From: Escherichia coli
Lineage (GTDB): Bacteria > Pseudomonadota > Gammaproteobacteria > Enterobacterales > Enterobacteriaceae
DNA: 64,000 nucleotides
Direction: 5' to 3' (one strand)
Assembly (NCBI RefSeq): GCF_003334405.1
Contig: NZ_QOWM01000004.1
Below, one piece after another: positions 9,878 through 11,937 of this stretch. Each line of letters starts with the position of its first letter. Position 1 is the first letter of the stretch. The notes under the pieces were generated by a model. That model made no database searches and was not told where the DNA came from. It saw only the letters and a program-made list of their open reading frames with translations. A program made the translations under genes and the position numbers.

Positions 9878-10525
9878 ATGAACTATCGTATTATTCCGGT
9901 CACCGCATTCTCCCAGAACTGTTCATTAATCTGGTGTGAACAAACCCGTCTGGCCGCACTGGTCGATCCTGGCGGCGATGCGGAAAAAATCAAACAGGAA
10001 GTTGATGACAGCGGCCTGACACTGATGCAGATCCTGCTGACGCATGGTCATCTGGACCACGTTGGCGCAGCGGCGGAACTGGCGCAACATTACGGCGTGC
10101 CGGTTTTCGGCCCGGAAAAAGAAGATGAGTTCTGGCTGCAAGGCTTGCCTGCGCAAAGTCGTATGTTTGGTCTGGAAGAGTGCCAGCCGCTGACGCCAGA
10201 TCGTTGGCTGAACGAAGGCGATACCATCAGCATAGGGAATGTGACTTTACAGGTGTTACATTGCCCTGGGCATACGCCGGGTCATGTCGTGTTTTTTGAT
10301 GATCGGGCAAAGCTGCTGATTTCTGGCGATGTTATTTTCAAAGGCGGAGTAGGGCGCAGTGACTTCCCGCGTGGCGATCATAATCAACTGATTTCTTCAA
10401 TCAAAGATAAATTGCTGCCACTGGGGGATGACGTGATATTTATTCCGGGTCACGGACCATTATCCACACTTGGTTATGAACGCCTGCATAATCCCTTCCT
10501 GCAAGACGAAATGCCCGTCTGGTAA
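9878..10525 (+). CDS. gloC: Metallo-beta-lactamase fold hydrolase (glyoxalase II-like) GloC/YcbL
   Basis: 215-aa ORF with THGHLDH metal-binding motif; position matches ycbL. Confidence 0.9.
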
Positions 10526-10531
10526 GGCACA

Positions 10532-10557
10532 TAAAAAAGCCCGCTTTTAATGCGGGC
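10532..10557 (-). terminator. Candidate intrinsic terminator read on minus strand (distal end of aspC transcript)
   Basis: Hairpin gcccgc-ttttaat-gcgggc preceded on plus strand by an A-run, which is a T-run on the minus strand. Confidence 0.4.
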
Positions 10558-10587
10558 CTGGATTTCTGGCAAAGTGCGCTTTGTTTA

Positions 10588-10687
10588 TGCCGGATGCGGC
10601 ACGAGCGCCTTATCCGGCCTACAAAATCGTGCAAATTCAAAATATTGCAGGGGACGCGTAGGCCTGATAAGCGTAGCGCATCAGGCA
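10588..10687. repeat. REP pair (BIME-like) in gloC-aspC intergenic region
   Basis: tgccggatgcggcacgagcgccttatccggcctac and inverted copy gtaggcctgataagcgtagcgcatcaggca; classic REP consensus. Confidence 0.85.
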
Positions 10688-10710
10688 ATGTTGCGTTTGT
10701 CATCAGTCTC

Positions 10711-10741
10711 AGCCCGCTTTTCAGCGGGCTTCATTGTTTTT
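10711..10741 (+). terminator. Candidate intrinsic terminator for gloC transcript
   Basis: Hairpin agcccgc-ttttca-gcgggct followed by tcattgttttt. Confidence 0.5.
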
Positions 10742-10746
10742 AATGC

Positions 10747-11937
10747 TTACAGCACTGCCACAATCGCTTCGCACAGCGGAGCCATGTTATCTGGTGTCAT
10801 CCCGGCCACATTTACGCGACCAGAAGCAACCGCATATACGCCAAACTCTTCGCGCAGACGCAGCACTTGTTCTTTTGTCAGGCCACTGAAGGAGAACATG
10901 CCGTTCTGTTTGATGATAAAGCTGAAGTCGCGGTTTGCGCCTTTTTCCTGCAGCGTATTGACGAACAACTGACGCATACGCTGAATACGCTGGCGCATAT
11001 CAGTCAGCTCTTGTTCCCAAATCGCACGTAACGCATCGTTGCTCAGGATGGTGGCAACAACAGAAGCGCCGTGTGCTGGTGGGTTAGAGTAGTTAGCGCG
11101 AATCGCCGCTTTCATTTGGCTGAATGCGCGATCAACGGTTTCACTGTCGGCAGCAACCAGAGTACAAGCGCCAACACGCTCGTTGTACAGGCCAAAGTTT
11201 TTAGAGTAGGAACTGGCAACAATCAGCTCTTTATGCATAGCCGCGAAAGCGCGCAGTCCTTCAGCATCTTCTTCCAGACCACGGGCAAAACCCTGGTAAG
11301 CGAAGTCAAACAGCGGTAACCAGCCTTTCTCAACGGAGAGTTGTGCCAGTGTTTGCCATTGTTCCAGCGTAGGGTCGATACCGGTTGGGTTATGGCAGCA
11401 GCCATGGAACAGCACTACGTCGCCAGCCTGAGCTTCATTCAGGCTGTTAATCAGTGCATCGAAGTCAAGAGTGTGATTTTCCGCATCATAATAAGCGTAT
11501 TCACGAACTTCCAGACCTGCAGAGTTAAAGACGCTCTTATGGTTCGGCCAGCTTGGGTTGCTCACCCACACACGCTTAACGCTGGTATTTTTTGCCAGGA
11601 AATCGGCAGCCACGCGTAGTGCGCCAGTGCCCCCCGGAGTCTGTGCCGTGCGAGCACGTTTGTCATTGATCAGGGCGCTACCTTTACCAAACAGCAGTTC
11701 CTGAGTGCAGCGACCAAATTCAGGGATGCCGTCAATGCCGAGGTAATTTTTGGTGGTTTCATTTTCGAGCAGATACTGTTCAGCCTTTTTCACGCTGGTC
11801 AGTACCGGGGTTTTGCCCGTCTCATCTTTATAGACACCAATCCCGAGGTTAATTTTGCCGGGACGTTCATCGGCACGAAACAGATCGGCCAGGCCCAGAA
11901 TCGGGTCGGCAGGAGCGGCGGTAATGTTCTCAAACAT
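10747..11937 (-). CDS. aspC: Aspartate aminotransferase
   Basis: 396-aa ORF recognised as AspC ([16 protein letters not shown]...); PLP-dependent aminotransferase. Confidence 0.97.

Follow-up and report, generated by a model that had tools for sequence, protein, structure and literature searches.

The gloC-aspC intergenic region

The gap between the convergent genes gloC (ycbL) and aspC was analysed in a stretch of 64,000 nucleotides of Escherichia coli (RefSeq assembly GCF_003334405.1, contig NZ_QOWM01000004.1), here called the window and the source of all positions given below unless MG1655 (K-12) coordinates are named; the two systems are related by window = MG1655 − 973772. The plus-strand genes ldtD, mepK and gloC converge here on aspC, with ompF further out, according to the open reading frame (ORF) list and the RefSeq annotation of identical DNA. 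The gap itself spans 221 nt (10526-10746) and holds a pair of repetitive extragenic palindromic (REP) sequences flanked by two GC hairpins. An initial annotation, made from the letters alone, had described the pair as resembling a bacterial interspersed mosaic element (BIME) and the hairpins as two opposed terminators, each reached by its transcript only after crossing the REPs. The analysis presented here leads to a different reading. The gap holds one full-length BIME-1 (also named RIP or RIB), and it is likely that an old insertion of this element duplicated and split a bidirectional terminator shared by the two genes, the right copy of which ends transcripts on both strands in K-12.

Identity of the element

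Both REPs proposed by the initial annotation are present in the convergent gap (10588-10687), and the positions it gave for all four features are correct to within a few bases. The Y and Z1 REPs are in inverted orientation with arms that are 93% complementary; the Y REP folds as RNA at −19.5 kcal/mol, and the Z1 REP is invariant across five aligned sequences (four gloC-aspC orthologues and the rlmC-artJ paralog). A comparison with other genomic copies, also suggested by the initial annotation, revealed that the stretch 10561-10710, which extends beyond the REPs alone, recurs with about 87% identity over 150 nt at e.g. fepA-entD and rlmC-artJ, and that a 153-nt core is a dispersed repeat that each E. 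coli genome carries in at least 40 places. The earlier label of a BIME-like REP pair could accordingly be sharpened to a full-length 152-bp BIME-1/RIP with conserved outer motifs on both sides of the REPs. BIME-1 is defined by one Y and one Z1 REP in single copy, separated by a long L linker that contains a site for IHF (Ton-Hoang 2012), and the gloC-aspC locus is a member of this group without any difference from it. A fuzzy scan of the 64-kb window found no REP pair but this one, a single non-tandem copy placed between the convergent stop codons.

The borders of the element were defined from 36 loci, a sample of flank-distinct BIME-1 copies from metagenome contigs, among which the modal unit length is 152 bp, exactly that of the window copy. 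The ends of the family are inverted, the consensus sequences CAGATTGTTGACAAAG and GAGACTGATGACAAAC matching in 12 of 15 positions (a 15-nt terminal inverted repeat), and the first 16 nt of the window copy, TGGATTTCTGGCAAAG, are a diverged version of the left of these. Inside the linker, 12 of the 13 positions of ATTCAAAATATTG (10635-10647) agree with the IHF consensus WATCAANNNNTTR, which makes it a predicted IHF site. The positions 10623-10665 match Rfam RF02751 (ES036/CssrF) with 53 bits at a gathering score of 37.6; this small RNA family covers the L linker of BIME-1 and may simply be the repeated linker transcribed in 3′ untranslated regions (UTRs). Matches to naRNA4, the Trp leader and other weak Rfam candidates were below their gathering scores and were rejected as REP-like or hairpin content only.

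In some genomes (H28, H29), with E. coli MS6193 (NZ_CP047405.1; locus L003, 1762-3040) as the example, IS621 of the IS110 family interrupts the Z1 REP at the equivalent of window 10661/10662, with the minus-strand junctions ATCAGGCCT|TGTATTATCC... and ...ACAGTATCT|ACGCG. These junctions fit the target reportedly described in the bridge-RNA papers, ATCAGGCCTAC with a CT core.

Table 1. Positions of genes, sequence features and transcript ends at the gloC-aspC locus of the window (MG1655 coordinates in brackets)
Feature	Position	Strand	Remarks
gloC (ycbL) coding sequence	9878-10525	+	stop codon TAA 10523-10525; ORF list and RefSeq annotation of identical DNA
A6 run belonging to the ancestral bidirectional terminator	10533-10538		U-tract for the minus-strand reading of hairpin 1; same A-run 5′ of the single hairpin in empty alleles
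Hairpin 1, left copy of the duplicated stem-loop, AGCCCGCTTTTAATGCGGGCC	10538-10558		stem 10539-10544 / 10552-10557
Complete BIME-1/RIP element, 152 bp	10559-10710		unit present or absent among strains
Left outer motif, 29 nt	10559-10587		from alignments and end consensus
Y-type REP, TGCCGGATGCGGCACGAGCGCCTTATCCGGCCTAC	10588-10622		CTAC end towards linker; Y/Z1 naming after Ton-Hoang 2012
L linker, 35 nt	10623-10657		IHF-like site 10635-10647
Z1-type REP, GTAGGCCTGATAAGCGTAGCGCATCAGGCA	10658-10687		inverted relative to Y REP
Right outer motif, 23 nt	10688-10710		terminates in right terminal inverted repeat TTTGTCATCAGTCTC (10696-10710)
aspC mRNA 3′ end, K-12	10706-10707 (984478/984479)	−	...GCGGGCUGAGA-3′, no U-tract; Term-seq, SMRT-Cappable-seq, SEnd-seq
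Hairpin 2, right copy of the duplicated stem-loop, AGCCCGCTTTTCAGCGGGCTT	10711-10731		stem 10711-10718 / 10723-10730, 8 bp
T-rich tail TTCATTGTTTTT of the ancestral terminator	10730-10741	+	plus-strand U-tract; identical in empty alleles
mepK-gloC transcript 3′ end, K-12	10734 (984506)	+	SEnd-seq table, Ju et al. 2019, as reproduced
aspC coding sequence	10747-11937	−	ORF list and RefSeq annotation

Two hairpins, probably copies of one

The two hairpins have the same stem and an exact 11-nt direct repeat, AGCCCGCTTTT, in common, at a distance of 173 nt. By our own estimate about 0.01 such repeats are expected by chance in the 321-nt region, and the resemblance is therefore beyond chance. The terminator geometry described in the initial annotation was recovered by a consensus scan, which gave a minus-strand terminator at 10559-10537 with the tail TTTTATGTGC for hairpin 1 and a plus-strand terminator with the tail TCATTGTTTT for hairpin 2, these being the first terminator-like sites in its output. 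As RNA, hairpin 1 folds at −14.1 kcal/mol (minus strand) and hairpin 2 at −15.6 kcal/mol (plus strand). On the plus strand hairpin 2 has the attributes of an intrinsic terminator, i.e. the 8-bp stem, the U-rich tail and a mapped end at 984506. Read on the minus strand it lacks a U-tract, with the tail GAGACUGAUGAC and a single A in the 8-nt 5′ flank.

Hairpin 1 is intact in the window strain, where it forms a GC stem-loop followed by U6 on the minus strand. The only base that differs between the window and MG1655 in the gap (271 nt aligned across it) is a G>T change at 10554 (MG1655 984326), in the right arm of this hairpin, which breaks the stem in K-12 and shifts the minimum free energy from −14.1 to −8.6 kcal/mol with a different fold. 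A mismatch is likewise found in the hairpin 1 copy of E. albertii. These observations are consistent with a left copy that is redundant and decaying in some lineages. The whole gap folds at −95 kcal/mol (z = −4.4), a value that the symmetry of the palindromic element and the duplicated hairpins account for, and a functional RNA spanning the gap was therefore rejected.

Empty and filled alleles

The filled allele is covered in 2,811 of 5,426 complete E. coli genomes (~52%), while the remainder are without 172-173 bp at this position and carry a single hairpin. In O157:H7 and Ecol_AZ161 the 50-nt gap contains a lone hairpin bordered by the A-run and the T-run, AAAAAAGCCCGCTTTTCAGCGGGCTTCATTGTTTTT, and lacks the element along with one copy of the hairpin. 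The survey was extended to one genome per species at 78 loci with both gloC and aspC, ranging from Citrobacter to Serratia and Rahnella. Most of these have a gap of 42-60 nt with a single A-run, hairpin and T-run, and about 60 other species of Enterobacteriaceae have one hairpin and no element. Since most species loci and the empty E. coli alleles alike carry a single hairpin, the ancestral state was one bidirectional terminator.

BIME-1 would have inserted into this single terminator, which gloC and aspC have in common in nearly all Enterobacteriaceae and which is composed of A-run, GC hairpin and T-run, and the insertion would have copied the whole stem-loop (~20 bp), so that the element is now framed by two copies. 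The left-hand copy would have retained the A-run and the right-hand copy the T-run, which explains the apparent geometry of two opposed terminators. The origin of the hairpin pair is thus the duplication of one ancestral terminator at repeat insertion, a step that had escaped the initial annotation. The insertion is old because E. albertii carries an orthologous copy, which has locus-specific changes in common with the E. coli copy that are not found in the rlmC-artJ paralog aligned alongside. Single-hairpin alleles within E. coli could be either the retained ancestral state or the result of deletion between the two hairpin copies.

The same terminator has received other insertions, independent of that in E. 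coli. Pseudocitrobacter vendiensis and P. faecalis have, at the gloC-aspC terminator, a BIME-1-like unit that is oppositely oriented and lies between two copies of GGCCGCGAAAGCGGCC; in a sister species the site is empty. In P. vendiensis (L037) the loop of the right hairpin is TTTT and that of the left GAAA, nearly its reverse complement, and in P. faecalis (L038) both loops are GAAA, which suggests that the loop of one hairpin copy was inverted after duplication in the former. In Entomohabitans teleogrylli (L076, 2149-2376) an insert of about 176 nt without REPs is present in the gloC-aspC terminator; its ends, with the core TGCTGACAAAG, are similar to those of BIME-1, a perfect IHF consensus, AATCAATTTATTG, is found close to the middle, and the insert is flanked by a perfect 26-nt repeat that includes the terminator hairpin.

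Other gaps in the survey are occupied differently. Single REPs or a REP pair stand beside an intact single terminator, without hairpin duplication, in Citrobacter (L010, L012, L028 and L031) and in Lelliottia/Leclercia (L014 and L021), and lone REPs seem to arrive by another route than the 152-bp unit. The gap is 342 nt long with a (GCCAGA)n microsatellite in Enterobacteriaceae bacterium LSJC7 (L064, 2149-2490) and 1,366 nt long in Buttiauxella agrestis (L067, 2149-3514).

Transcript 3′ ends in K-12

Published 3′ end maps of K-12 bear directly on the claim that both transcripts cross the REPs before ending. In Term-seq, 984479 (window 10707) is the dominant 3′ end of aspC and is classed as "primary"; in SMRT-Cappable-seq, a full-length aspC transcript starts at 985744 and stops at 984479. 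Entry 69 of the SEnd-seq table (Ju et al. 2019), in the form reproduced in the supplement of bioRxiv 10.64898/2026.03.23.713779, is an overlapping bidirectional termination site at 984478-984506, assigned to ycbK:ycbL:aspC. This site corresponds to window 10706-10734 and was detected in both log and stationary phase (bioRxiv 10.64898/2026.03.23.713779). The aspC 3′ ends in the three data sets are located 4-5 nt past hairpin 2 and upstream of the REPs, and from the SEnd-seq plus-strand end at 10734 it follows that gloC-strand RNA crosses hairpin 1 and both REPs. The 3′ UTR of gloC mRNA in the filled K-12 allele is consequently about 209 nt long and includes the REPs. The claim therefore stands for gloC, whose end lies beyond the REPs, and fails in K-12 for aspC, whose end precedes them; by the same token REPs sit in the 3′ UTR of gloC and not, as had also been supposed, in that of aspC. 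Hairpin 2 still functions as a bidirectional terminator in K-12. Among the Term-seq ends no plus-strand end is listed near 984490-984529, and the gloC end is taken from SEnd-seq.

The filled allele resembles the overlapping bidirectional terminators of Ju et al. in having one GC hairpin with convergent 3′ ends that overlap by 29 nt. It differs from these in that the aspC-side A-run has been moved 173 bp off, so that this end forms without a U-tract. The aspC end may arise in one of two ways, through termination that depends on the hairpin and is assisted by convergent transcription, or through a 3′ exonuclease that trims the RNA as far as the hairpin.

A competing view on the transcriptional side is that the gap contains two working unidirectional terminators and that both transcripts cross the REPs to the far hairpin, as the initial annotation had it. 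The sequence geometry fits this view, gloC-strand transcripts do end at the far hairpin, and in the window strain hairpin 1 is stable and has its U6. Rho-dependent regions are located beyond the gap on both strands, at 984273 (minus) and 984537 (plus), indicating that some transcripts read through the gap, and the former implies that some aspC-strand RNA crosses it entirely. At other loci the dominant Term-seq ends of artJ and uspB are at the distal hairpin copy, adjoining the U-tract and past BIME-1, while that of tsx falls at the base of the Z1 REP, showing that the use of the two hairpin copies differs by locus. At gloC-aspC, however, three independent K-12 data sets place the aspC end before the REPs, and the K-12 Term-seq tables have no dominant 3′ end at hairpin 1 (near 984304-984310, with none at 984320-984349 on either strand). 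Taken together, we consider two separate unidirectional terminators unlikely. Because the stem of hairpin 1 is broken by the G>T change in K-12, data from this strain cannot test hairpin 1 for other strains.

Hairpin duplication at other BIME-1 loci

Duplication of a flanking hairpin is not confined to gloC-aspC, and occupied and empty sites were found for four E. coli locus pairs, gloC-aspC included. At pitA-uspB, which like the next two is a convergent gene pair, the empty allele carries ...GAGCGGGTCAGTTTACTGGCCCGCTTTTTTT and the filled allele has that hairpin on either side of the element (1,940 of 5,426 genomes filled). The rlmC-artJ gap has one hairpin when empty and two when filled, the latter in 3,192 of the 5,426 genomes. 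The tsx-yajD gap likewise has one hairpin when empty and two when filled; here 3,805 of the 5,426 genomes cover at least 80% of the filled-form query, which is not a clean count of filled alleles. The repeat at the four loci with an empty allele is the local stem-loop with two or three A·T pairs, and where loops are asymmetric the direct orientation is kept in both copies, without inversion. The yjfF-fbp locus (L144) was dropped as a fifth pair since its contig is not from E. coli and the K-12 hairpin there differs.

Across the 36-locus sample, 13 loci had a similarity between left and right flank above the 99th percentile of mismatched-pair controls (control mean 5.9, 99th percentile 10; observed scores up to 23). 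All 13 have a repeat of 16-27 nt that adjoins the element within 0-3 nt on both sides. The flanks have the geometry of a target-site duplication in which the structure of the target, and not a fixed stagger, determines the length. At the metagenome locus L191, the left flank ends in ...CCGGCGGGTTT and the right flank starts with AAACCCGCATCG; the two arms of one hairpin seem to be separated here, and not duplicated, which may represent a decayed copy or another outcome of insertion.

These data also speak to the suggestion that two tandem terminators came first and that BIME-1 merely landed between them. A Citrobacter genome (L054) does have two different tandem terminators in the gloC-aspC gap, without an element. 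At the E. coli locus, on the other hand, both copies share the stem and the exact 11-nt repeat, the empty alleles carry exactly one copy, and the pattern recurs at 13 loci with locus-specific sequence adjoining the element. We regard a tandem origin without insertion-linked duplication as extremely improbable.

Proposed mechanism of insertion

The composition of the repeat, a stem-loop with a few A·T pairs, leads us to propose nicks at the two feet of the hairpin followed by fill-in. Cutting or joining would take place at both feet, probably of an extruded cruciform or a single-strand hairpin, and a bend at the central IHF site would bring the two termini of the element together. The constancy of the element borders and the conservation of the inverted termini argue for recognition by a protein. 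In a tentative model, to which we give somewhat less than an even chance and which would call for an enzyme that integrates DNA at extruded hairpins or cruciforms, BIME-1 would be more than a passive pair of REPs and would resemble a transposable element of the miniature inverted-repeat type (MITE), with 15-nt inverted termini and a central IHF site, that integrates at the foot of terminator hairpins and duplicates the whole stem-loop, the 16-27 bp tracking hairpin length. The REPs may then be cargo and not recognition sites, as the family includes the REP-less member in Entomohabitans. A 3.5-kb pairing of end motifs in four contigs was considered as an autonomous element and rejected as a chance match inside a coding region.

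The main alternative for the mechanism is replication template switching without a transposase. A strand would stall at the terminator hairpin, switch through microhomology of the A- or T-runs to a donor BIME-1, return upstream and copy the hairpin again. Palindromes are obstacles to replication, the junctions are in A/T pairs at the stem foot, and the donor loci, too, have flanking hairpins with T and A runs; the failure to find a cognate transposase in 1.25 Mb of loci also agrees with this route. Less easily reconciled with it are the sharp and constant borders (CAGATTG...CAGTCTC), which lie 0-3 nt from the repeat at 13 of 13 loci, and the junctions inspected by eye, in which no donor hairpin was carried over. 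The conserved 15-nt terminal inverted repeat, present also on the REP-less Entomohabitans element, looks like a substrate for enzyme recognition. Template switching thus appears rather improbable.

A third possibility is that BIME-1 is a unit of the REPIN type moved by a REP-associated tyrosine transposase (RAYT, in E. coli TnpA-REP), and that the flanking hairpins are unrelated to insertion. BIME-1 is indeed an inverted REP pair, and in vitro the E. coli TnpA-REP cuts REP DNA and joins it again (Ton-Hoang 2012). The polymorphic unit nevertheless reaches 29 and 23 nt past the REPs, its borders adjoin direct repeats that are specific to each locus, and REPs are absent from the Entomohabitans element, which has the same termini. 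Y1 transposases of the IS200/IS605 type leave no flanking repeats, and together with the extension of the unit beyond the REPs this makes a RAYT-only model a poor fit; we consider it very unlikely.

Several observations weigh against the duplication of terminators by BIME-1 insertion, or against its consequences as described above. Clear duplications are missing at 23 of the 36 loci, many of which have a hairpin on one side only, and two of which, fepA-entD and L109/L198, have no flanking hairpin at all. The polarity within Escherichia is ambiguous: E. albertii is filled, and the E. coli alleles without the element may have lost it by secondary deletion between the hairpin copies. All 3′ end data derive from K-12 with its mutated hairpin 1, and in the window strain some aspC transcripts may end at the intact copy, in line with the distal ends of artJ and uspB. 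Moreover, Term-seq, SEnd-seq and SMRT-Cappable-seq do not tell termination from processing. Finally, neither a transposase nor an autonomous relative with BIME-1 termini was present in the 1.25 Mb searched. The pattern of flanking duplication itself is well supported in our view, and the main uncertainties are whether it was described earlier in the 1990s and whether an enzyme or replication slippage is responsible.

Relation to known systems and significance

BIME-1, RIP and RIB elements of E. coli were reportedly treated by Gilson in 1991, by Boccard and Prentki and by Oppenheim in 1993, and by Bachellier in 1994 and 1997. The element as such, its location at 3′ ends, its presence/absence polymorphism and the K-12 3′ ends are all already known, and the locus itself is an ordinary one. 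In the literature accessible to us, outside of which the primary papers of the 1990s remained, we came across no account of either the hairpin-sized duplication in the flanks (16-27 bp) or the 15-nt inverted termini, and we make no claim of priority. The nearest remark encountered is that REP dimers in some other phyla sit within palindromes. Polymorphism of BIME-1/RIP among isolates is attributed to Bachellier (1997) in a paper citing that work.

Bacterial MITEs such as Correia/NEMIS, ERIC and RUP resemble BIME-1 in being short palindromic elements that do not code for protein and that have terminal inverted repeats as well as direct repeats in their flanks; like it they are polymorphic for presence or absence, end up in 3′ UTRs by co-transcription and in some cases have IHF sites. 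The duplications made by MITEs are as a rule short and of fixed length, whereas the flanking repeat of BIME-1 is 16-27 bp long and tracks the length of the host stem-loop. We know of no parent insertion sequence for BIME-1. The REPIN/RAYT system resembles BIME-1 in having two inverted REPs as the repeated unit and a REP-specific Y1 transposase in E. coli. BIME-1 differs from REPINs in having its borders outside the REPs and in its flanking duplications, and falls outside that group. A mechanistic analogy, and only that, may be drawn to Cas1-Cas2 and casposon integration, where both borders of a palindrome are joined and gap filling duplicates the entire palindrome, with the involvement of IHF in E. 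coli. The gloC-aspC locus has no CRISPR, leader or spacer-sized insert, and the insert here is 152 bp with its own inverted termini.

The "opposed terminators" of the filled allele are on this evidence the footprint of a repeat insertion and were not designed as a pair. In roughly half of E. coli strains the gloC 3′ UTR is ~209 nt long and contains REPs, in the other half it is ~40 nt long, which provides a natural pair of alleles for the study of REP/BIME effects on mRNA. The aspC end at a hairpin without a U-tract offers a clean case of U-tract-independent end formation between convergent genes. The mechanism by which REPs and BIMEs spread has been unresolved since the 1980s, and the combination of hairpin-sized duplication, inverted termini and terminator targeting places testable constraints on it. 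Integration at the foot of terminators would, if true, account for the long-noted location of RIP/RIB at 3′ ends, and would turn shared bidirectional terminators into split ones.

Outside the gap, in the ompF-aspC interval, a very strong "orphan" Term-seq 3′ end is found on the minus strand at MG1655 985841 (~window 12069), 132 nt upstream of aspC. It is preceded by a hairpin with a U8 tail (GGACTTTGGTCC, then TGTTTTTTTT) and presumably represents the ompF terminator.

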